Virus record (IMG/VR): IMGVR_UViG_3300029220_000010
DNA from: a virus
DNA length: 54,538 nucleotides
Direction: 5' to 3' (one strand)
Program-made: the position numbers and the translations under genes
Part shown: positions 9,956-54,538 of the stretch, in pieces
Layout: each line of letters starts with the position of its first letter
Numbering within the stretch: position 1 is the first letter of the stretch
The notes under the pieces: generated by a model
Databases searched by the model: none
The model's input: the letters and a program-made list of their open reading frames with translations, nothing else
Told to the model about the DNA's origin: nothing

Positions 9956-9994
9956 AGAATTGACCTTGATAGAATCTTGGTCAATTCTTTTTTT
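9956..9994 (+). terminator. Rho-independent terminator
   Basis: Perfect 10-bp stem, AGAATTGACC (9956-9965) with GGTCAATTCT (9979-9988), then a T-run. Confidence 0.65.
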
Positions 9995-10013
9995 AATTGA
10001 AAGGAGAATTGAC

Positions 10014-11369
10014 ATGAAAAAATTAAATGTAGGTTATATGAGAGTGTCTACAGAAGCACAGACCGAAAAGTATGGTCTTGATGTCCAAGAAGACAAAATA
10101 AATGAACTTGCCAAGAAAAGGGGCGTAAAGATAGCCAGATGGTATGTGGACGGGGGATATTCAGGGAGCAATATCCAAAGGCCGAACATACAGAAACTTC
10201 TGGAGGATGCAGAAGCCGGAGAAATACAGGCAGTATACATCTATAAGCTTGACAGAATGAGCCGTGATGTTGTAGATACTCTTACGCTTGTGAGTAAGCT
10301 TTTACCAAAATACAATGTAGAGGTAGTATCGGCTACAGAGGATCTGCGGAATGAGACACCGATGGATCGTGTAATGCTGGGCGTTAATGCGGTCATGGGG
10401 CAGTATGAGCGTGAGGTTATCTATATGCGTACAAGAGCCGGTATGGTGGAACGTGTAAAGCGTGGACTGTGGATGGGTGGCGGTACGATACCTTACGGAT
10501 ATAGGTACGACAGGAACGATGGGATATTACATATCATCCCAGAAGAATCGGAAAAGGTAAAAGCTATCTTTCAAATGTTCCGAGACGGATATTCGTGTGA
10601 TAGGATTCAAAAAATTCTTGGGATGCATTCGGAGAAACTTGTATCGAATATTATTCGGAGAATAACTTATGTAGGTAAGATACAGTACAAAGGAAGAGTA
10701 TACCAAGGTTTACACGAACCGATCATAGACGAAAAACTATTTTACGAAGTACAGGAAGAGATAAAAAAGAGGTCTACAAATGCTTACGTAAGCAACAAGC
10801 ATATGCTTACCGGGTTGTGCTACTGCGGAAAATGCGGTACTAAAATGCGGATGCAGAAGTGGGGAAAGTACACCAAGATAGTATGTTACTCACAGTACAA
10901 GGAAAAAGAACATATATCTAAGACAGGGAATCCTTGCAAGAATAAAAAGGTGCGGGCAGATGTGGTGGAAAAAGAAGTAGAGGACTGTTTTAAACGATTC
11001 ATCGTTAATGTCGAAGAAAAAGAGAATGAATCCGAGAGCACCAAGAAGATGATAGAGCGAGAGATATCACTCAGCGAATCAAAGCTGAAACGCCTATACA
11101 CATTGTATGCAATCGGTAACTCCGGTACAGATACGCTTTTTGGTGTTATTCAGGCAGAAGAAAAAACACTGAAAAATCTACAGGAAGAACTAAAGGCAGA
11201 AGATATCAAGGAGAAAGCCGGACGTGGAGAAAAGATAGAGAAAATAAAAGAGATGTCCAACGTGTGGGATACACTGACGGATTCCGAGAAAAACAAGGTG
11301 CTAAAAGAGTGTGTTGAAAAGGTTGTTATCGCGGGAGATGACATAGACATACATTTTAGCATATATTAA
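10014..11369 (+). CDS. Large serine recombinase (phage integrase)
   Basis: AAGGAG SD. Resolvase-type N-terminus VGYMRVSTEAQ...YKLDRMSRD, recombinase domain, zinc ribbon CYCGKCGTKM, C-terminal coiled coil. Confidence 0.9.
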   Translation: MKKLNVGYMRVSTEAQTEKYGLDVQEDKINELAKKRGVKIARWYVDGGYSGSNIQRPNIQKLLEDAEAGEIQAVYIYKLDRMSRDVVDTLTLVSKLLPKYNVEVVSATEDLRNETPMDRVMLGVNAVMGQYEREVIYMRTRAGMVERVKRGLWMGGGTIPYGYRYDRNDGILHIIPEESEKVKAIFQMFRDGYSCDRIQKILGMHSEKLVSNIIRRITYVGKIQYKGRVYQGLHEPIIDEKLFYEVQEEIKKRSTNAYVSNKHMLTGLCYCGKCGTKMRMQKWGKYTKIVCYSQYKEKEHISKTGNPCKNKKVRADVVEKEVEDCFKRFIVNVEEKENESESTKKMIEREISLSESKLKRLYTLYAIGNSGTDTLFGVIQAEEKTLKNLQEELKAEDIKEKAGRGEKIEKIKEMSNVWDTLTDSEKNKVLKECVEKVVIAGDDIDIHFSIY

Positions 11370-19631: not shown

Positions 19632-19925
19632 ATGTACGCAAAATTAGAAAACGGATTCTTGCACAGTGCACCCAAGACGATAACACTGGATGGCAAGACA
19701 ATAAACAATCCACTGCCGGAAGAGTTAGAGCAGATAGGCTACAAGCCTGTAGTGTACGTAGATATGCCTACGGAAGTAACAGAGGGCAAACACTGGGAAT
19801 CCAGTTGGAAAGAGGAAGAGAATGCGATTAGGCAGGTATGGAAACTGGTAGATGATCCAGTCTATCCAGAGCCAGACTTAAGTGCAGAAGAAGCACTCAA
19901 TATTATAATGGGGGTGGTACAGTGA
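19632..19925 (+). CDS. Hypothetical protein
   Basis: 97-aa ORF; AAAGGAG upstream. Confidence 0.55.
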   Translation: MYAKLENGFLHSAPKTITLDGKTINNPLPEELEQIGYKPVVYVDMPTEVTEGKHWESSWKEEENAIRQVWKLVDDPVYPEPDLSAEEALNIIMGVVQ

Positions 19926-20314
19926 CGAGGGAACAAGCAGAACAGTTAAGAGGACTGCTAGAGAACCAGACAGCCACGATGACTGATGAACAGATTGTTA
20001 AGTATCCGGCGTTCGTGGAGAAATGGGAGTCTGGCAAGGCATATGTAGTTGGTAAGCGGTTGGAATACAATGGTACTATCTACAAGGTATTACAAGCCCA
20101 TACAAGCCAAGAGACATGGACACCGCCGGATGCGCCGTCTTTGTTCGCCAAGGTACTTATTCCGGATGAAAATGTTATCCCGGAGTGGGAACAACCAGGC
20201 AGCACGAATCCATATGCCAAGGGCGACAAGGTTACGCACAACGGCAAGACATGGCAGAGCACCACGGATAACAACGTCTGGGAACCAGGCGTGTATGGAT
20301 GGGAAGAGATATAA
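19922..20314 (+). CDS. Protein with two CBM5/12-like carbohydrate-binding repeats
   Basis: YVVGKRLEYNGTIYKVLQAHTSQETWTP and YAKGDKVTHNGKTWQSTTDNNVWEPG. Confidence 0.55.
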   Translation: MTREQAEQLRGLLENQTATMTDEQIVKYPAFVEKWESGKAYVVGKRLEYNGTIYKVLQAHTSQETWTPPDAPSLFAKVLIPDENVIPEWEQPGSTNPYAKGDKVTHNGKTWQSTTDNNVWEPGVYGWEEI

Positions 20315-20369: not shown

Positions 20370-20663
20370 ATGGAACAGATTATAAATTATGTAAAACCAG
20401 AATTGGTGGTAGTATCTATTGCGCTGTATTTTATCGGTATGTGGTTAAAGAATTCACAGAGGATTAAGGATAAGGACATCCCGCTGATTCTTGGCAGTAT
20501 TGGAATTACCATTTGCGGAATGTATGTGATTGCAACTTGTGATCTGTCTGGAATGCAGAATATTTTTATGGCACTGTTTACGGCTATCGTACAGGGAATT
20601 CTTGTAGCCGGACTTAGTACATACGTCAATCAGATTATTAAGCAGATTGGAAAGGATGAATAA
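20370..20663 (+). CDS. Holin-like protein, three TM segments
   Basis: INYVKPELVVVSIALYFIGMWLKNSQRIKDKDIPLILG resembles Hol44/phage_holin_5-type holins; AAGGAGGA SD. Confidence 0.6.
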   Translation: MEQIINYVKPELVVVSIALYFIGMWLKNSQRIKDKDIPLILGSIGITICGMYVIATCDLSGMQNIFMALFTAIVQGILVAGLSTYVNQIIKQIGKDE

Positions 20664-22253: not shown

Positions 22254-22613
22254 ATGGAACTAATAACACAGATACTTGCTATATGCGGTGCTATATCGGT
22301 TGTCGGCGGTGCTATTGCGGTGCTTTCCGGGTGGTACAAATCATGGAAAGCACCAAAAGAAAAACAGGACAACCGTATAGAACAGATTGAAAAGCGAATA
22401 ACGAATATTGAAACATCTATCACAGGGATTAATCAGAAACTTGATAACGATTATAAGAACATAAGGAATACGAGGGATGATATGAATCTATTAATGAGAA
22501 GTATGTTTAATTTGATCGAAAACAAAATCACAGGAAATAACATTGAGGGTTTAAAAAAAACTCGGGAAGAGCTTGTAAATGCTATGACGGACAAGAAACC
22601 AAAGGAATTATGA
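22254..22613 (+). CDS. N-terminally anchored membrane coiled-coil protein
   Basis: TM segment ILAICGAISVVGGAIAVLSGW followed by heptad-like sequence. Confidence 0.55.
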   Translation: MELITQILAICGAISVVGGAIAVLSGWYKSWKAPKEKQDNRIEQIEKRITNIETSITGINQKLDNDYKNIRNTRDDMNLLMRSMFNLIENKITGNNIEGLKKTREELVNAMTDKKPKEL

Positions 22614-22810
22614 AAATATACTCTTTTACACGACCAGAACTTGACTATTTTGAGTTAGAATGCAACTTCACATCGGATGAATTGAAACTGTTCCGGCTCC
22701 GTGCTAAAGCTATGCCTTTAGAGGACTGTGCGGAAGAAATGAATGTGAGTGTGTCTACGGTCAAAAGATTGAGTAGAAGAGTAAATGATAAGATTGAAAG
22801 GGTGGTATAG
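22610..22810 (+). CDS. Small sigma-70 region-4-like HTH protein
   Basis: DELKLFRLRAKAMPLEDCAEEMNVSVSTVKRLSRRVNDKI. Confidence 0.5.
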   Translation: MKIYSFTRPELDYFELECNFTSDELKLFRLRAKAMPLEDCAEEMNVSVSTVKRLSRRVNDKIERVV

Positions 22811-23619: not shown

Positions 23620-24282
23620 ATGATTTTTAAAGAAGCGTTTGAATTAATGAAACAGGGTGCGAAAGTAAAATTGCCTGGATGGAATGGTTACTGGTGTTGG
23701 GATAATGATAAGCAGACGATTATGATTCATTGCAGACCAAAGGATTCCGACAAAGGACAGGGAGAAATTCTTGATATCCGTGAAACGCAGAGAGTGGAAT
23801 ATACTTTCATGCACACACAGAGAGACGATTGGATGGTTGCTGATGAAGAAAATTGCGGTATTCTCGGTGGTCAGTCAACATTTGGATTCGGTGATGCTAT
23901 CCGTTATCTGAAAAGAGGGCTTAAAGTGGCTCGTAAAGGTTGGAATGGTAAAGGAATCTATCTGGAAATGTATTCGCCAGAAGTCAATCTTGAAACTATT
24001 GCAGAAGCAGTGCATAACGCATGGTGGGAAGAAAAGAAAAAACAGGGAGTTACAGATCACCCGGATATGATTCCGTATTCTGAACTGAGTGAAGAAGTGA
24101 AAGAATACGACAGAGTTACAGCAAGAACAACTATTGAAGCATTCAATTATATGACGCATTCGTTCATATATATCAACACTACTGGATTACAGACAGAAAA
24201 TCCTTATGCGCCTAAAAATAAAGTGCCGTGGACACCGTCTCAGACTGATATGCTTGCAGAAGATTGGATGTTTGTGGAATAG
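23620..24282 (+). CDS. Tandem DUF2829 (Tad2-family) protein with an RyR-domain insertion in the second copy
   Basis: Copy 1: MIFKEAFELMKQGAKVKLPGWNGYW...RDDWMV. Copy 2: FGDAIRYLKRGLKVARKGWNGKGIYLEM...WTPSQTDMLAEDWMFVE. Insert: AEAVHNAWWEEKKKQGVTDHPDMIPYSELSEEVKEYDR. Confidence 0.6.
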   Translation: MIFKEAFELMKQGAKVKLPGWNGYWCWDNDKQTIMIHCRPKDSDKGQGEILDIRETQRVEYTFMHTQRDDWMVADEENCGILGGQSTFGFGDAIRYLKRGLKVARKGWNGKGIYLEMYSPEVNLETIAEAVHNAWWEEKKKQGVTDHPDMIPYSELSEEVKEYDRVTARTTIEAFNYMTHSFIYINTTGLQTENPYAPKNKVPWTPSQTDMLAEDWMFVE

Positions 24283-24596: not shown

Positions 24597-24631
24597 AGAG
24601 ACTTTAACGAACTGTTAAGGTCTCTTTTTTA
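24597..24631 (+). terminator. Rho-independent terminator
   Basis: AGAGACTTTAAC pairs with GTTAAGGTCTCT, then TTTTTT. Confidence 0.75.
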
Positions 24632-24686
24632 TGCGTAAAATAAAAGCATAGAGAACAAGAAATACTAATTTACAGGAGGTATGAGT

Positions 24687-25112
24687 ATGAATCCATATAT
24701 GCCATATACACCGTACATGCCACAGGATGCTTATATGCAAGACCAGATGGCATTACGACAACGGATAGACAACTTATCACAGGCTCAACAGCAATACAAG
24801 GCACAGCCACAGCCGAACGTGAACTGGATACAGGTAGCCGGAATTGATGGGGCAAGAAATCAGATTGTACAGCCTGGAACAACGGCTTGGATGATGGATA
24901 ACAATGCACCGTACTTCTATGTGAAATCTGTAGACGGTGTGGGAAGTGTGACGTTTAAGGCTTTTGAATTCCACGAGGTACAGGCGAACAATCCACAACC
25001 TGTAGCGGAAAACATGGACGCTAAGTACGTGACAAGAGAAGAATTCAATAAATTACTGGATACATTGAAACCTCAGCCGGAAGAACAGAAAGGGGAGCTG
25101 ACGCATGAGTAA
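24687..25112 (+). CDS. P/Y/M/Q-rich N-terminus protein, unknown function
   Basis: AGGAGGT SD 6 nt before ATG 24687; MNPYMPYTPYMPQDAYMQDQM...QAQQQYKAQPQP followed by a globular part. Confidence 0.55.
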   Translation: MNPYMPYTPYMPQDAYMQDQMALRQRIDNLSQAQQQYKAQPQPNVNWIQVAGIDGARNQIVQPGTTAWMMDNNAPYFYVKSVDGVGSVTFKAFEFHEVQANNPQPVAENMDAKYVTREEFNKLLDTLKPQPEEQKGELTHE

Positions 25113-25359
25113 TCCGTTAATGGGAATGATGGGCGGTATGCCGGGTGGCAACAGTCCATTCGGAATGATTCAAAGAATGATGGGGATGATGCAAAATACG
25201 CAGAATCCCGGAGCAATGTTGCAGAATATGGCGCAGAGCAACCCGAACATAAAAAAGGCTATGGATATGTGCCAAGGAAGAAACCCGAAAGATGTATTTA
25301 TGGAGATGTGCCAACAAAATGGCATGAATCCAAACGACATTATTAATAAAATAAAGTGA
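25105..25359 (+). CDS. Met/Gly/Gln/Asn-rich small protein
   Basis: MSNPLMGMMGGMPGGNSPFGMIQRMMGMMQNTQNPGAMLQNMAQSNPN... Confidence 0.55.
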   Translation: MSNPLMGMMGGMPGGNSPFGMIQRMMGMMQNTQNPGAMLQNMAQSNPNIKKAMDMCQGRNPKDVFMEMCQQNGMNPNDIINKIK

Positions 25360-25411
25360 TATCCGGACGGAGTGCACACGTCTTGATAAATAAAAGAAAA
25401 GGAGAACCAAC

Positions 25412-26080
25412 ATGAACGAGGGATTAAACACACTTAGTGCTGCAGATGTAGCAGCAGTCACAAGAAACAACGATGGAAACATGTGGGGTGACGGTGGATG
25501 GTTCTGGATTATCATTCTTGCTTTCCTATTTTGCGGTAACGGATGGGGAAACAACAATGGAGCACAGGACGCTTTTATCTCTGACGAATTCGTGAAAAGA
25601 GATATCTTTAACACAAATCAGAATGTGTCTAACACAGCTTGCGAGACACAGAGAGACGTATTAGAGAACCGCTATAACACACAGCTCGGCTTGCAGAACT
25701 TACAGGCTCAGCAGTCTCAGTGTTGCTGCAACACACAGAAAGAGATTTTACAGAGTAGATATGATGCAGCATTACAGGCACAGAACATGCAGGCACAGAT
25801 GGCACAGTGTTGCTGTGATATCAAAGAAAGCATCTTAGCAGATGGACAGGCTACACGCCAGTTAATCCAGGATAACACGATTCAGAACTTGAGAGACAAG
25901 CTTGCTGATCGTGACAGAGATTTGCAGACAGCATACTGGCAGATTTCACAGGTATCACAGACCAATAACATTATTGATGCAGTGAGACCGACACCAAAAC
26001 CGGCTTATATGTCTTGCAGTCCATACTTTGCATATAACGCATTTGGTAATGGTTGCTGTGCAAGTGGGAATGTGATGTAA
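25412..26080 (+). CDS. Membrane-anchored Gln-rich protein with repeated CCC motifs
   Basis: TM segment WFWIIILAFLFCGNGWG. Internal ~29-aa repeats end in QAQQSQCCC and QAQMAQCCC. C-terminal GNGCCASG. Confidence 0.6.
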   Translation: MNEGLNTLSAADVAAVTRNNDGNMWGDGGWFWIIILAFLFCGNGWGNNNGAQDAFISDEFVKRDIFNTNQNVSNTACETQRDVLENRYNTQLGLQNLQAQQSQCCCNTQKEILQSRYDAALQAQNMQAQMAQCCCDIKESILADGQATRQLIQDNTIQNLRDKLADRDRDLQTAYWQISQVSQTNNIIDAVRPTPKPAYMSCSPYFAYNAFGNGCCASGNVM

Positions 26081-26287
26081 GTGAACGATATATCACTACT
26101 TGACTTTCTGACGGTGTACGGAGTTGCTTTACAGATAGCGAATTTTAACAGTAATCTATCACAGGCAAGTAATTCTGACATCGAAAAACACTTGCACGAA
26201 CAAGACAGTAAGTATTTTTTGAAAATAATTGAAAACCAAAACAAAATCATAAGCATGTTGGAAGAATCCATATCTACGAAAAAGTAG
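26081..26287 (+). CDS. Hypothetical protein (GTG start, no clear SD)
   Basis: 68-aa ORF abutting the previous stop. Confidence 0.35.
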   Translation: MNDISLLDFLTVYGVALQIANFNSNLSQASNSDIEKHLHEQDSKYFLKIIENQNKIISMLEESISTKK

Positions 26288-26300
26288 TCTTGCGAACATC

Positions 26301-26334
26301 AAAGAGAGTAGGCATGCGCTTGCTCTCTTTTTTT
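26301..26334 (+). terminator. Rho-independent terminator
   Basis: AAAGAGAG pairs with CTCTCTTT around a GC-rich core, then a T-run. Confidence 0.6.
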
Positions 26335-26351
26335 AAGAAAGGAGAAAAAAT

Positions 26352-26780
26352 ATGTTAAATTCTATTGCTAAAAACGCTCAGACAGTAGCAACAAATCAGA
26401 ATGTATTATTTACGGAAACAAGAGTGAAAAGCCGTAGATGCGCTTGTAACACAGGGTGGCTTGCACATGACAACGGCAGTGGACTTTTTGAAATCACAAA
26501 CCGCGGAAATCTGCCGATGGCAGTCGAAGTTGAGTTTAACGGAAACGTTACGGCATCTGCAATAGGAGCGGTAGCGTTATCTATCAAACAGAACGGGGAA
26601 CCGGTTTCTGGTACGGAAATGGATTATACAGTAGCAACGGCAAATGTGTATCAGAATGTCAGTGCAGCTACATTGATTGCAGTTCCGGCCGGAAGTAGCG
26701 TCACTGTATCGGTTGGCAACGTTGGCACAGTCGAAACATTGGTTAAGGATGCGAATATCATCATTAAAAAGCTCTCATAG
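26352..26780 (+). CDS. Small beta-rich protein, possibly a C1q/TNF/BclA-C-terminal-like jelly roll
   Basis: Alternating pattern ...LFEITNRGNLPMAVEVEFNGNVTAS...LSIKQNGEPVSGT...VTVSVGNVG...ANIIIKKL. Confidence 0.4.
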   Translation: MLNSIAKNAQTVATNQNVLFTETRVKSRRCACNTGWLAHDNGSGLFEITNRGNLPMAVEVEFNGNVTASAIGAVALSIKQNGEPVSGTEMDYTVATANVYQNVSAATLIAVPAGSSVTVSVGNVGTVETLVKDANIIIKKLS

Positions 26781-26797
26781 AAAAGGGGTGAGTTTCT

Positions 26798-27388
26798 ATG
26801 ATTGATTTTAAAAGCAACCTAGATGTCAAAACTCCGAAAGAAATCTTTGCCGAAATCAATAAACGGTTTATCGGAGCGGTCATGATGCACGGACAGTTTG
26901 CGGACTACTTTGATTTCCTTGGCTTAAAAGGCTTTAAGCGGATGCATGAGTACCAGCACATTGCGGAAAGTTTGGAACGTAGGAAAGTGTGCCAATATTT
27001 TATAAGCCATCACAATCAGCTTATTGATGATGAATTTGATGGAAAAGTAAATGTTATCCCGGATGCGTGGCGAACGGCCAAACGGTTAAGCGTTGGGAAA
27101 AGCACAAAGCAGAAAGCCGTAGAAGATGGATTTGTTGAGTATCACAATTGGGAATCCGAAACAAAGGAAGTGTACGAACAGTACGCACACACGCTAAGAG
27201 AAAACGGTCATGTGGCTGATGCTATGTTCGTGGAATGTTTGGTAGAGGATGTAAGCGAAGAATTAAAAACTGTAGAATGTATGATTAACGACCTCATATC
27301 TACAGGATACGACATGGTATATATCACAGAAATTCAGTCGGAGATTCACGACAAATACAAAAAGAAAACGAAAGGAATCGAGGTGTGA
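26798..27388 (+). CDS. Ferritin-like four-helix-bundle protein
   Basis: By eye, HGQFADYFDFLGLKGFKRMHEYQHIAESLERRK and MFVECLVEDVSEELKTVECMINDL align to ferritin helices A/B and D. Confidence 0.45.
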   Translation: MIDFKSNLDVKTPKEIFAEINKRFIGAVMMHGQFADYFDFLGLKGFKRMHEYQHIAESLERRKVCQYFISHHNQLIDDEFDGKVNVIPDAWRTAKRLSVGKSTKQKAVEDGFVEYHNWESETKEVYEQYAHTLRENGHVADAMFVECLVEDVSEELKTVECMINDLISTGYDMVYITEIQSEIHDKYKKKTKGIEV

Positions 27389-27391
27389 TAA

Positions 27392-27814
27392 ATGAGCGAG
27401 ATCAAAAAGATTTTGGAAGACCAGCTTGAACGCGAAAAAGCATCTGCAAAGAAAGACTTGAATATGTCTAACTTACAGGCAATGTACATGATTACATCTA
27501 CATTATGCAATATGAAATCTTTGGAATGTGAAAGCGTACCGGGGATGATTGCGGATGCATCGGAAAACCTTATCAAGAAATACAGTAACGGAAAGTACGA
27601 TAAAAACATTGATGCGCTATACGACCAGTACATTATGGCGAAAGAGATGTATCAACAGAACGGAGATCAAGCGCACAGAGACAAACTGATGGAAAGTGTC
27701 GGGAAACTTATGGTAGAAGTGTACGACATGCTTTCCTCTATGGTGATGGATTCAGATTTTGCAGAAGAACGGAAAGAGATTCAAAGGCAAATCAAGAAGC
27801 TTGCGGAAATGTAA
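27392..27814 (+). CDS. Hypothetical helical protein
   Basis: GAGGTG SD; 140 aa. Confidence 0.55.
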   Translation: MSEIKKILEDQLEREKASAKKDLNMSNLQAMYMITSTLCNMKSLECESVPGMIADASENLIKKYSNGKYDKNIDALYDQYIMAKEMYQQNGDQAHRDKLMESVGKLMVEVYDMLSSMVMDSDFAEERKEIQRQIKKLAEM

Positions 27815-28193
27815 AAACATGGGTACGGAGTACTATATATATTAATGTTACGATATATACGGTGAATCACATAGGACATTTTCTTTTCTTACTTGATACA
27901 CCTCCTTTCAATAAAGCCTAATAGCGGAATGCTGATTAAAGGGCGGTCAAACGCCCGTTAGGCTTTCCCCTAAGGTTGCGGACTTGGGGAATCGTCATCT
28001 TATGTTACCTCCTAAAAATATAAAATGATAAATTTTTATCCGCAAAGGATAGTGCACAGTATGGTGCATGGATTCATTTCCGACTATCCTTTTTCTGTAT
28101 AGAGTTAGTTACGGAATAATATACAGATTGACCGTCAAATAGCCGTAACAGTGGTTGGAACTGTATAGAGGGAACACTTACACCAACCACTAA

Positions 28194-28280
28194 CGGGATA
28201 TAGTTCAATGGTAGAACAAAAGTCACAATCATCTCTTTAAAAAAAGACTTATGTCCACGGTTCGATTCCGTGTATCCCGA
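28194..28280 (+). tRNA. tRNA-like gene with canonical acceptor, D and T arms but a 21-nt anticodon loop
   Basis: Acceptor CGGGATA/TATCCCG; D arm GTTC-AATGGTA-GAAC; T arm CACGG-TTCGATT-CCGTG; anticodon stem AAGTC/GACTT encloses ACAATCATCTCTTTAAAAAAA. Confidence 0.5.
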
Positions 28281-28287
28281 TTACCCC

Positions 28288-28331
28288 GACAGAGGTTCAT
28301 CTGTCTGAATCCCTACCGCAGACGAAGCGGT
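28288..28331 (+). promoter_or_regulatory. Two-hairpin intergenic element (loose copy) upstream of the scaffold gene
   Basis: GACAGA-ggttca-TCTGTC, then ACCGC-agacgaa-GCGGT. Confidence 0.4.
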
Positions 28332-28361
28332 TAATAAGAGACGTTGAGGAGGATATGCAAC

Positions 28362-41472: not shown

Positions 41473-41658
41473 ATGGCAGCTATGAGCGAAGAAACCACTT
41501 GTGAAGTAATCAAAAGCTGTGCCTACGGTTATACTGTAGACGAATTGGCAGAACACTACGGCATGGAAAAAGCAGATGCAGAAAAGTTTGTGAAAGAGCA
41601 TGCAACTGAGATTGCGGAAACGAAAGAACATTTAAAACAGGAGGGATATATTGAATAG
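41473..41658 (+). CDS. Small soluble acidic protein (not a holin)
   Basis: 61 aa with no hydrophobic segment; AAAGGAGA SD. Confidence 0.45.
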   Translation: MAAMSEETTCEVIKSCAYGYTVDELAEHYGMEKADAEKFVKEHATEIAETKEHLKQEGYIE

Positions 41659-42640
41659 GGTAGTCGATGTTTCTGAACATAACGGGAACATCGACTGGAC
41701 TAAAGTAAAAGCATCTGGCATTGTAGGTGCTATCCTTAGATGCGGATATGGGCAAGATCAGACAGGACAGGATGATAAAAAATGGCTGAGAAATGTATCT
41801 GAATGTGAGCGTCTTGGCATCCCTTACGGTGTGTACCTGTATTCTTACGCAAAGACTACAGGTGCAGTACAGGGAGAGGTCAACCACACATTAAGACTTC
41901 TAAAAGGACATTCTCCGGCATGGCCTGTATATTTTGACAGCGAACAGCCGGGAACACAGGGTGTTGCAAAAGCCAATGCAAAAGCATTTTGTGATGCAAT
42001 GGTAGCACATGGCTATAAAGCCGGAATCTATGCATCTACATCTTGGTATAAGAACTATATCGGCCAGACATGGGGATATTCTCTGTGGATTGCATCTTAC
42101 GGCTCTAAATCTGCCGGAGTAGACGGAATTGATATGTGGCAGTACACATCGAAAGGCTCTATTCCTGGAATCCCTGGAAATGTAGATGTAAACTATCTCT
42201 ATAAGGACCTGGGCGGTACGGTAACTCAGGTACAGAAACCGACTGTAGCACCGGCACCTAAACCGGTAGATGAATCTTGGAAAGGTGACAAGCGGTATTA
42301 CCTGGAAAACACCCGTGTAGGGTCATGGCAGAAAGCTATGAATATAGGATTTGACACTAAAGAATTATCTGAGGATAACAAATTCGGTGTCGGCTCACAG
42401 AATTTTGCTAAAACGCATATCTTATGGTCCGGTCAGACACACAACTGCATCACAGCTATCAGATGGCTGAGACGTACCCTCAGAGACGTATATGGCTTTA
42501 CGAAGCTGTCTTACAACGAGGGGTGGACAGACTACCTCGGGAAGTGCGTAGAGGTATTCCAGAGGAACAGAGGACTTACACCGGATAGAAAAGTAGGACT
42601 TGACACAACCTACTGGCTCTTATCCGGCGTTGTAAAATAA
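41651..42640 (+). CDS. Endolysin: GH25 muramidase plus C-terminal peptidoglycan-binding domain
   Basis: TTG start after AGGAGGGA. VVDVSEHNGNIDWTKVKASGIVGAILRCGYG...GVYLYSYA (GH25), Pro-rich linker, PG_binding_1-like C-terminus. Confidence 0.85.
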   Translation: MNRVVDVSEHNGNIDWTKVKASGIVGAILRCGYGQDQTGQDDKKWLRNVSECERLGIPYGVYLYSYAKTTGAVQGEVNHTLRLLKGHSPAWPVYFDSEQPGTQGVAKANAKAFCDAMVAHGYKAGIYASTSWYKNYIGQTWGYSLWIASYGSKSAGVDGIDMWQYTSKGSIPGIPGNVDVNYLYKDLGGTVTQVQKPTVAPAPKPVDESWKGDKRYYLENTRVGSWQKAMNIGFDTKELSEDNKFGVGSQNFAKTHILWSGQTHNCITAIRWLRRTLRDVYGFTKLSYNEGWTDYLGKCVEVFQRNRGLTPDRKVGLDTTYWLLSGVVK

Positions 42641-53922: not shown

Positions 53923-54538
53923 AGGATTCAACAAAGGCATGACTTGCAGAGATTTCCAATATGAAGAGGGGAAAGAATACGAAGAAGAAAGAGCCGAAGC
54001 GTGCAACTGTGGATTTCATGCATGCGAGCATCCGTTAGATTGCCTTGGATATTATGATCCGGCACACAGTGTATATCATGAAGTCGAACAGAGTGGAGAG
54101 ATATCGAAAAGATCTGATGATACGAAAGTAGCATCTACGAAGATTAAGATCGGGGCAAGAGTGAACATTGCCGGATTGGTACAGGCTGCTATCGAATATA
54201 CGAAAGAAAGAGTTAAGCCAGAAGCAGAAGCTAATGAGGACTACGGGGCATCCAGTGCGACAGGCTACAAAGGGGCATCCAGTGCGACAGGCGACTGTGG
54301 GGCATCCAGTGCGACAGGCGACTGTGGGGCATCCAGTGCGACAGGCGACTACGGGGCATCCAGTGCGACAGGCAACTGTGGGGCATCCAGTGCGACAGGC
54401 AACTGTGGGGCATCCAGTGCGACAGGCGACTGTGGGGCATCCAGTGCGACAGGCTACAAAGGGGCATCCAGTGCGACAGGCAACTGTGGGGCATCCAGTG
54501 CGACAGGCAACTGTGGGGCATCCAGTGCGACAGGCTAC
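53897..54538 (+). CDS. 5' part of the junction-spanning repeat protein (DUF7666-like N-terminal domain plus GASSATGxx repeats)
   Basis: AGGAGGA SD then GTG 53897. IKAYKGFNKGMTCRDFQYEEGKEYEE...CGFHACEHPLDCLGYY. The frame is open to the window end. Confidence 0.8.
   Translation, partial: MGEVIKAYKGFNKGMTCRDFQYEEGKEYEEERAEACNCGFHACEHPLDCLGYYDPAHSVYHEVEQSGEISKRSDDTKVASTKIKIGARVNIAGLVQAAIEYTKERVKPEAEANEDYGASSATGYKGASSATGDCGASSATGDCGASSATGDYGASSATGNCGASSATGNCGASSATGDCGASSATGYKGASSATGNCGASSATGNCGASSATGY
54245..54538 (+). repeat. 27-bp in-frame tandem repeat, about 11 units at the window end
   Basis: Units GASSATG + YK/DC/DC/DY/NC/NC/DC/YK/NC/NC/Y..., with 21 of 27 nt invariant. Confidence 0.95.

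Follow-up and report, generated by a model that had tools for sequence, protein, structure and literature searches.

A seven-gene island in the head region of a siphophage genome represents a conserved and mobile accessory gene cassette found in tailed phages

We analyzed a seven-gene island in the IMG/VR virus record IMGVR_UViG_3300029220_000010, a stretch of 54,538 nucleotides (nt) that we refer to as the window. The window is the genome of a temperate siphophage and encodes a large serine recombinase (9960-11369), a terminase, a portal, and a tail module, together with an endolysin (41651-42640) and, on the minus strand, a repressor. The island consists of seven plus-strand genes (24681 or 24687 to 27814), here called g1 to g7. 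Upstream of them is the minor capsid gene (PF06152, 20749-21981), and downstream are the genes for the scaffold (PF06810, 28344-28970) and the major capsid protein (MCP). Comparison with other loci revealed that tailed phages share this set of genes as a conserved accessory cassette that is mobile, and that the window carries one copy. The features of the island are as follows.

24597..24631, plus strand: intrinsic terminator (12-13 bp stem and T6) that closes the upstream accessory block (DUF1653, Tad2-like, DUF6275)
24632..24680, plus strand: short leader with a possible extended -10 element, TGCGTAAAAT (24633-24642), and a ribosome-binding site (RBS), AGGAGG (24672-24677)
24681..25112, plus strand: g1, with a Gln/Pro/Tyr/Met-rich N terminus (phrog_21718, 8e-17)
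25105..25359, plus strand: g2, an 84-amino-acid (aa) Met/Asn/Gln/Gly-rich protein (hidden Markov model, HMM, of the cassette family)
25412..26080, plus strand: g3, the signature gene, with a hydrophobic anchor and CCC motifs (phrog_16490, phrog_9288)
26081..26287, plus strand: g4, 68 aa, an optional member of the cassette
26302..26336, plus strand: internal intrinsic terminator or attenuator (12-13 bp stem and T7) that sets g1-g4 apart from g5-g7
26352..26780, plus strand: g5, a 142-aa stand-alone protein modeled as a TNF/C1q-type jelly roll, similar to the BclA C-terminal domain (BclA-CTD) and ExsFA (AlphaFold2, AF2, and Foldseek)
26798..27388, plus strand: g6, a ferritin-like helical protein with a degenerate di-iron site (family profile against ferritins)
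27392..27814, plus strand: g7, a 140-aa Met-rich protein, the short form of family gE (phrog_28802, 5e-7)

A first-pass annotation, made from the letters of the window alone, had described seven odd genes between the minor capsid and scaffold genes, and all of these open reading frames (ORFs) were confirmed; for g1, the ATG at 24687 is a likelier start than the one at 24681, judged by RBS spacing. A 5.8-kb run of non-structural genes separates the minor capsid gene from the scaffold and capsid genes, and its first half holds a weak sigma-70 region-4-like gene, DUF1653, a Tad2-like gene (PF11195), and DUF6275. The island had also been called terminator bounded. This was correct upstream, where a hairpin (24597-24625) is followed by a T run (-15 kcal/mol, z = -5.2), and a terminator lies at the same place before g1 in five relatives (L004, L005, L006, L025, and L027). 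On the other side, no terminator-like hairpin was found after g7, and the downstream boundary is a 530-nt spacer (27815-28343) that holds a tRNA-like element. The internal terminator reported after g4 is a hairpin (26302-26329) with T7 and a folding energy of -19.5 kcal/mol.

Do these genes travel together? We assembled 104 loci (8 phage records, 16 GTDB genome loci, and 80 IMG/VR loci), all chosen by g5 similarity alone, and ran an HMM for each family on every ORF of the 16 GTDB and 80 IMG/VR loci. The order g1-g2-g3-(g4)-g5, followed by g6-g7 or by gE, recurred in essentially all loci uncut by contig ends. Among the 8 phage records, tblastn detected g3 and g5 in every one, g1 in four records, and the complete set of seven genes in a single record. 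The earlier suggestion of a coherent, co-located set is thus borne out by the presence of the cassette in many other phages, the reverse of the lack of co-occurrence that had been named as counting against it.

The cassette consists of two sub-operons, g1-g2-g3(-g4) and g5-g7/gE (the latter with g6, gF, a DUF7841 protein, or a small metallopeptidase in some cases), with a hairpin terminator between them. A hairpin and T run were present at the g3/g4-g5 junction in 50 of 71 distinct relatives. The stem sequences differ, and retention of the hairpin despite this divergence marks it as a conserved structural feature that splits the cassette into two sub-operons. Upstream of g1, an extended -10-like motif, TGnNAWAAT, occurred within 12 nt of the terminator T run (usually 1 nt past it) in 23 of 81 distinct upstream regions of relatives.

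The genomic position of the cassette differs between lineages. In the lineage of the window, which has an SPP1-like gene order (L004-L007 and L027-L029), the cassette always occupies the gap between the minor capsid and scaffold genes; the other genes of this gap vary by phage, and a Tad2-like gene is found in some relatives only. The cassette follows the lysin gene in the Butyrivibrio phage Ceridwen and lies beside an integrase in Dulem viruses 33 and 39. In the Clostridium perfringens phages HMD-PC1 and vB_CpeS-17DYC, the arrangement g1-g2-g3-X-g4-gF-g6 is found between the antirepressor and Gam/recombinase genes of the early region. The earlier description of an insertion inside the head region therefore applies to the window lineage and does not extend to phages that carry the cassette after the lysin, by the integrase, or amid early and recombination genes. 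The second sub-operon (g5 and gE) can also stand alone. An uncultured Clostridia metagenome-assembled genome (CAJUNT010000034; L018, 5758-10705) contains a small integrative element with g5 and a gE/DUF7841 fusion (PF25223, 6e-26) and without g1-g3. This element also encodes an XRE regulator, an excisionase-like helix-turn-helix (HTH) protein, and a tyrosine integrase, as well as a 396-aa ORF beside g5/gE that we read, by eye alone, as a P-loop (AAA-type) ATPase.

The amino acid composition of the island was compared with that of the 49 other ORFs of the window. Gln makes up 11.9% of g1 and 10.8% of g3 (background mean, 3.0%; maximum, 6.5%), and Met makes up 20.2% of g2 (background maximum, 8.3%) and 10% of g7. 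Cys accounts for 5.0% of g3, and g6 is enriched in His. The odd composition noted earlier for g1 and g2 indeed falls outside the range of the background ORFs. GC content at third codon positions was 0.39-0.53 in the island genes versus 0.386 ± 0.054 in the background. The ratio of nonsynonymous to synonymous substitution rates (dN/dS) was ~0.10-0.24 where dS was unsaturated (orthologues at 50-80% identity); the island genes are under purifying selection. Amino acid identity to orthologues was 77-80% for g3 versus 60% for the minor capsid protein.

The product of g3 begins with an acidic tail of ~30 aa, followed by a hydrophobic anchor, WFWIIILAFLFCG, with Gly-rich stretches on both sides. Next come a helical region rich in Gln and Asn, a PxPxPAY motif, and a C terminus rich in Cys. 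The anchor and the repeated CCC motifs had both been recognized in the first-pass annotation; CCC is invariant in the family and duplicated in the window copy. Residues P195, P197, P204, and C215-C216 are also invariant, and the tail is CxCxxxCxC-like. Across 120 g3 homologues, the ~30-aa N-terminal tail carried a net charge of -3.25 with fewer than one basic residue, and the flank on the C-terminal side of the anchor carried 2.25 basic residues. None of the partner proteins of g3 has a signal peptide. Taken together, the flank charges and the lack of signal peptides in the partners suggest an orientation of g3 with the N terminus out and the C terminus in.

The g3 family is large: clustering at 90% identity gives more than 8,000 clusters, and clustering at 50% identity leaves 2,431. 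The best 150 of these 2,431 representatives are all stand-alone proteins of about 90-370 aa. One homologue, P0180, which is 73% identical to the window protein, was found in 460 blocks of the contig index. The cassette thus occurs in thousands of phages of strictly anaerobic gut microbes and is one of the more frequent gene sets in the gut virome that still lack an explanation.

We searched Pfam, PHROGs, NCBIfam, and PADLOC with all seven proteins and their distant homologues. These searches returned only unnamed PHROGs, a sub-threshold BclA_C match, and noise, and PADLOC gave no match at an E value of ≤0.1 for any of the seven proteins. In agreement with the earlier reading, no standard virion or replication function was matched in the four collections. 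Sequence and profile searches against the PDB yielded nothing significant for g5, g1, g3, or g2; g6 alone had a match, to ferritin. No relative of g3 was found in Pfam or the PDB. Neither g3 nor g4 matched a holin family in Pfam or PHROGs, and the holin and endolysin of the window are encoded elsewhere.

In the AF2 model of g1, a disordered Gln/Pro/Tyr/Met-rich N terminus leads into a beta-alpha-beta3 domain of ~50 aa, after which come a C-terminal helix and a charged tail. The core (residues 48-97) was modeled at a predicted local distance difference test (pLDDT) value of >90 and had no PDB fold match at an E value of <0.2; structural matches of g1 to SH2 and tailspike proteins were rejected as noise. 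The g1 family comprises 4,866 clusters at 90% identity, none of them named. In Clostridia phages, g2 is always located between g1 and g3, and the HMM detected its family in nearly all loci. We found no match for g2 in Pfam, PHROGs, or the PDB and no relatives outside the cassette. A possible role of g2 as an STI1/SGTA-like "Met-bristle" chaperone was unsupported by the Pfam and PDB profile searches and stays speculation. The small protein g4 has a hydrophobic N-terminal helix and an amphipathic helix, was found in L002, L004, L009, L010, and the C. perfringens phages, and had no family match in Pfam or PHROGs.

The AF2 monomer model of g5, built from a shallow alignment, is all-beta with nine strands (pLDDT 84; predicted template-modeling score, 0.82). 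The best Foldseek matches in the PDB were BclA-CTD, F-BclA, BxpB, and ExsFA (E values of 4e-6 to 6e-5, probability of 1.00, template-modeling [TM] scores of 0.5-0.67), followed by the TNF-family ligands EDA and 4-1BBL and by C1q, cerebellin, and Pgp3. In BFVD, the best matches (TM score of 0.8) were unnamed ~135-aa proteins of gut siphophages, and lower matches were the C-terminal heads of collagen-like proteins from phages and giant viruses. The match of g5 to Pfam BclA_C (PF18573) reached an E value of 1.1e-6 and 28.9 bits, under the 38-bit gathering cutoff; some close homologues carry a precomputed PF18573 match, and L005, from a distant subfamily other than that of the window, had no BclA_C match. 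Family members span 128-155 aa. On the strength of this model, g5 is predicted to have a TNF/C1q-type jelly-roll fold, which agrees with the C1q/BclA-C-like jelly roll that had been proposed from the sequence. In HMD-PC1 (L025, 5494-5853), the g5 slot holds an unrelated-looking 119-aa beta-rich protein with several Cys residues, an N-terminal CxxC, and no family match. This protein of the C. perfringens phages may be a displaced analogue of g5.

The ferritin-like character assigned earlier to g6 was recovered when its family profile was compared with archaeal and bacterial ferritins (E values of 2.9e-5 to 1.7e-4), over helices A-B only and with a weak second half. The metal site is altered: the first Glu ligand, in helix A, is replaced by Arg, and EExxH reads AExxE in the window (Glu to Ala and His to Glu). 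The gene also occurs in the C. perfringens phage cassettes (7e-10), and the C. perfringens copy retains EDxxH. Overall, g6 is a lineage-specific member that is missing from most cassettes. The gE profile matched g7 at 1.3e-8 in an hmmsearch run against two g7 sequences only, and the hhalign probability was only 61%. Proteins of family gE have helical ends, as in g7, plus a disordered middle rich in Arg, Tyr, Gly, and Asp; g7, described as helical in the first-pass annotation, is presumed to be so from its membership in this family. The optional members of the cassette are g4, g6, the small helical protein gF, a DUF7841 protein, and gZ, a ~105-aa HExxH metallopeptidase that is absent from the window. 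Matches of gZ in Pfam were weak (ImmA/IrrE, DUF6782, and SprT-like), and its counterpart in a Bacteroides phage is annotated as "PolyVal metallopeptidase superfamily."

How far does the cassette reach? The carrier Ceridwen infects Butyrivibrio fibrisolvens, has been seen growing only lytically, and is considered virulent (PMC7372960). Clear g3 homologues were found in many Crassvirales, such as cr116_1 gp022 (HMM, 1e-39), annotated as "spike protein/glycoprotein" and located between terS and the MCP gene. The cultured Bacteroides uniformis phage C3_41T2LP has a g3 homologue amid recombination genes. By tblastn and HMM, these Crassvirales and Bacteroides homologues keep the anchor, CCC, PxPxPAY, and the Cys tail. 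A weaker g3 match (1e-10) was obtained in viruses assigned to Methanomassiliicoccales, in which CCC is retained and the Cys tail is gone. The genes that follow g3 in the Bacteroides and crAss-like phages encode a beta-rich protein with Cys residues, a coiled-coil protein, a mini-protein rich in Arg, Asp, and Tyr, a DUF7841 protein, and a small metallopeptidase. When Clostridia g5, g1, gE, and gF were compared with these positional counterparts by hhalign, no homology was detected except for a weak metallopeptidase motif (P of 2e-4).

Among 50,697 phage records, every match was to a sequence from a gut or rumen metagenome, to a phage of C. perfringens, Butyrivibrio, or Bacteroides, or to a methanogen virus; no match was found in the phages of Bacillus, staphylococci, streptococci, lactococci, enterobacteria, or actinobacteria in this set. 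Among named hosts in this biased sample, the cassette appears to be confined to strict anaerobes. The cassette or its g3 gene thus spans siphophages of Clostridia, Crassvirales, other Bacteroides phages, and viruses assigned to methanogenic archaea, whose hosts have diverse envelopes. Assigning its function would annotate thousands of "hypothetical" genes together and might reveal a feature peculiar to the way viruses infect under anoxia. Direct testing is possible, as Ceridwen, several C. perfringens phages, and C3_41T2LP are carriers available in culture.

We compared the cassette with known systems. The g5 model superposes on both BclA-CTD and ExsFA/BxpB of the Bacillus exosporium, and ExsFA/BxpB is, like g5, a stand-alone protein of about 140-150 aa. 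However, sequence identity between BclA/ExsFA and g5 is 12-21%, and BclA has a collagen-like stalk, whereas g5 has no GXX repeats and no exosporium context and is encoded by phages, including phages of hosts not known to sporulate. Ferritins (5ls9, 3kx9, and 1s3q) align with g6 over helices A-B (E value of 3e-5) and share a GLKGF motif, but g6 does not have the complete set of ferroxidase ligands and is present in some cassettes only. In encapsulin cargo systems the cargo gene is linked to the shell or capsid gene; the corresponding link of g6 is not conserved, as it lies in the early region in L025 and L026.

Lambdoid morons are autonomous promoter-gene-terminator units within late operons. 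The cassette is moron-like in its upstream terminator, in the promoter-like motif of its relatives, in its location in an accessory hot spot of the late cluster, and in a position that varies among phages. Terminators of the kind that flank morons lie at 24597-24631 and 26302-26336, with none after g7. Unlike morons, which have one or two genes, the cassette has five to seven, contains a putative internal attenuator, and is kept by apparently virulent phages. A second comparison is with p16.7 of phi29, which has an N-terminal membrane anchor and a coiled coil and organizes phage DNA replication at the membrane. The predicted design of g3 is similar, with a short N-terminal tail, a single hydrophobic anchor, and a helical or coiled-coil cytoplasmic part, and the cassette lies beside replication and recombination genes in several phages. 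In contrast to p16.7, g3 has Cys clusters, at least four partner genes, and no detected DNA-binding domain, and the two proteins have no sequence relation. Literature searches on BclA/C1q proteins in prophages, C. perfringens phage virion proteomics, F-ENA appendages, and methanogen viruses yielded no described match to the cassette, in line with the earlier remark that the set matched no described system. As a whole, the cassette could be a new system; the folds of g5 and g6 are known individually, and its function may yet fall in a known class.

What might the cassette build? Its parts resemble self-assembling proteins: an anchored, helical, Cys-rich g3, a jelly roll (g5), proteins that combine helices with low-complexity sequence (g1 and gE/g7), and a Met-rich g2. 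The window cassette encodes no recognizable catalytic enzyme, NTPase, or DNA-binding domain, and elsewhere only the small peptidase gZ is occasionally present. The absence of a recognizable enzyme together with these assembly-type proteins leads us to propose, tentatively and with a rough probability of 0.35, that the cassette, as an autonomously regulated accessory unit, gives rise during infection to a multiprotein assembly that is anchored in the host membrane on its cytoplasmic side and acts independently of envelope type. The last attribute follows from the sharing of g3 among phages of Gram-positive, Gram-negative, and (by assignment) archaeal anaerobes. In the proposed mechanism, g3 would insert in the host cytoplasmic membrane, such that the short acidic N-terminal tail faces outward and the helical Cys-cluster domain lies in the cytoplasm; this domain would be the docking site for g7/gE and for g5, the latter presumably as a trimer; g1 and g2 would serve as assembly or insertion factors; and the hairpin between the sub-operons, most simply read as an attenuator, would set the ratio of the first to the second. 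Such an assembly might serve to organize membrane-associated processes of the phage, to keep other phages out, or to sense redox conditions via the Cys clusters. A broader version of this proposal, which we consider doubtful, is a new supramolecular device shared by viruses of strictly anaerobic bacteria and archaea (Clostridia, Bacteroidota, and methanogens), made of a membrane-anchored g3 stalk, a TNF-like g5 trimer, and disordered adaptors, and either responsive to oxygen or redox state or organizing infection.

Several observations weigh against a cytoplasmic membrane assembly. Membrane insertion, topology, oligomers, and the contacts of g3, g5, and g7 are predictions, and g3 has a hydrophobic core of only ~13 residues, apart from its Gly flanks (KD17 of 1.58). 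Conserved Cys clusters in a reducing cytoplasm call for a reason, which may be metal binding. No fusion of g3 with another cassette protein was found among the best 150 of the 2,431 representatives. Outside Clostridia, demonstrable homology is limited to g3, DUF7841, and, weakly, the metallopeptidase, and the other neighbors are alike only in size and composition. The candidate -10 element of the window, TGCGTAAAAT, has its TG one base out of place, and a sigma-70 scan of the region gave no promoter. Finally, the cassette adjoins capsid genes in several unrelated lineages, which fits a virion role as well.

In that virion role, g3 would form the coiled-coil shaft of a fiber with g5 as the TNF-like knob at its distal end, and the product would be a head fiber, a decoration, or an ejection protein; the other genes would encode assembly chaperones. 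This explanation would account for the cassette amid the head genes of the SPP1-like lineage and for g3 in the terS-MCP interval of cr116_1. Crassvirales g3 homologues are labeled "spike protein" or "outer capsid protein/viral fiber," TNF-like heads often cap collagen-like phage fibers in BFVD, and hydrophobic Gly-rich segments are known in ejection proteins. However, the fiber labels are unverified annotations of a protein without a PDB relative, and the minor capsid-scaffold gap also holds clearly non-structural genes, such as the Tad2-like gene. In the other lineages examined the cassette lies outside the structural module (amid early or recombination genes, downstream of the lysin, or next to an integrase); it has its own terminators and a possible promoter; and g5 and gE occur in the small integrative element of L018 with no capsid genes within the 5 kb examined. 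This combination of variable position, own transcription signals, and a stand-alone g5-gE element argues against an obligatory capsid component, and we regard the virion explanation as unlikely. We give a similarly low rating to a moron-type conflict cassette acting in superinfection exclusion, or in defense or anti-defense at the membrane. The sequence of terminator, promoter-like motif, and genes is that of a moron, one component is predicted to be membrane anchored, and the cassette sits in a variable hot spot beside a Tad2-like anti-Thoeris gene. On the L018 element, g5 and gE/DUF7841 lie beside the putative ATPase ORF read by eye, and some cassettes include the small metallopeptidase with its weak ImmA/IrrE, DUF6782, and SprT-like matches. 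Nevertheless, none of the seven proteins matched PADLOC, and five to seven structural-type genes are unusually many for exclusion. Conservation of g3 above that of the capsid protein is atypical of fast-evolving conflict genes, and the cassette is retained by apparently virulent phages (PMC7372960).

Could the cassette instead be a redox or metal device of strict anaerobes? Metals or Fe-S clusters would then be bound, or oxygen sensed, by g3 through its Cys clusters, by the Met-rich g2 and g7, and by the ferritin-like g6. All named carrier hosts are strict anaerobes, and no phage of an aerobic or facultative host was matched among the 50,697 phage records; g3 has an invariant CCC and a CxCxxxCxC-like tail; Met reaches 20% in g2 and 10% in g7; and g6 combines His enrichment with a ferritin fold. 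Yet most cassettes have no g6 and the protein retains few of the ferroxidase ligands, no metal-binding family was matched in Pfam or NCBIfam, the composition argument is indirect, and the bias toward gut metagenomes could mimic the anaerobe signal. We therefore view this device as quite improbable. Less probable still are two readings that go back to the first-pass annotation, namely, a spore coat or exosporium-like modification of the host spore and an encapsulin-like cargo or compartment system built on g6. The closest structural matches of g5 are the exosporium proteins BclA, BxpB, and ExsFA, and the scaffold and MCP genes come shortly after g6 and g7. Compositions rich in Cys, in Tyr and Gln, or in Arg and Tyr are also reminiscent of coat proteins. 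Against them, carriers infect hosts not known to sporulate (Butyrivibrio, Bacteroides, crAss-like phage hosts, and, by assignment, Methanomassiliicoccales archaea), which excludes a spore-specific role; some carriers are apparently virulent; and no coat protein was matched in Pfam or NCBIfam, nor does g5 have a collagen-like stalk. The cargo reading rested on g6, an optional, lineage-specific member whose metal site is degenerate and whose gene, in the C. perfringens phages, is distant from those of the capsid.

Several neighboring features were also recorded. A gene just before the upstream terminator (23620-24282, plus strand) encodes a 220-aa protein similar to Thoeris anti-defense 2 (Tad2; PF11195, 3.6e-21), with a RyR domain match inside it. 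Closer to the minor capsid gene are a membrane-anchored coiled-coil protein with weak XhlA/DUF7365 matches (22254-22613, plus strand) and a 66-aa sigma-70 region-4-like HTH protein (22610-22810, plus strand). By eye, comparable pairs precede the cassette in L004 and L005, and L006 has the HTH protein only. The pair at 22254-22810 could therefore act as a local regulator. A Hol44 holin (PF16079, 8.5e-28; 20370-20663, plus strand) and a CBM_5_12 carbohydrate-binding protein (19922-20314, plus strand) are encoded in the interval from the portal gene to the minor capsid gene; the holin and the endolysin are 21 kb apart.

The tRNA-like element of the downstream spacer (28194-28280, plus strand) lies just upstream of the scaffold gene and matched the Rfam tRNA model in full over 87 nt (53.2 bits, E value of 1e-9), with an insert of ~16 nt; ARAGORN found no tRNA anywhere in the window. 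The segment 27900-28000 appears structured and had no score against RNA families. The spacers between cassette and scaffold gene in relatives contain RAGATH-21 RNA (RF03097), tRNAs, and, in L009, skipping-rope RNA (RF02924), all above the gathering score, at the following positions.

L004, 5745-5831: RNA element in the spacer
L005, 9097-9181: RNA element in the spacer
L007, 2364-2439: RNA element in the spacer
L009, 9555-9644 and 9789-9872: RNA elements in the spacer
L010, 2489-2557: RNA element in the spacer

In L027 and L058, a tRNA is located just upstream of g1. The very end of the window (54245-54535) is a 27-bp tandem repeat of 10.8 copies with 93% matches.

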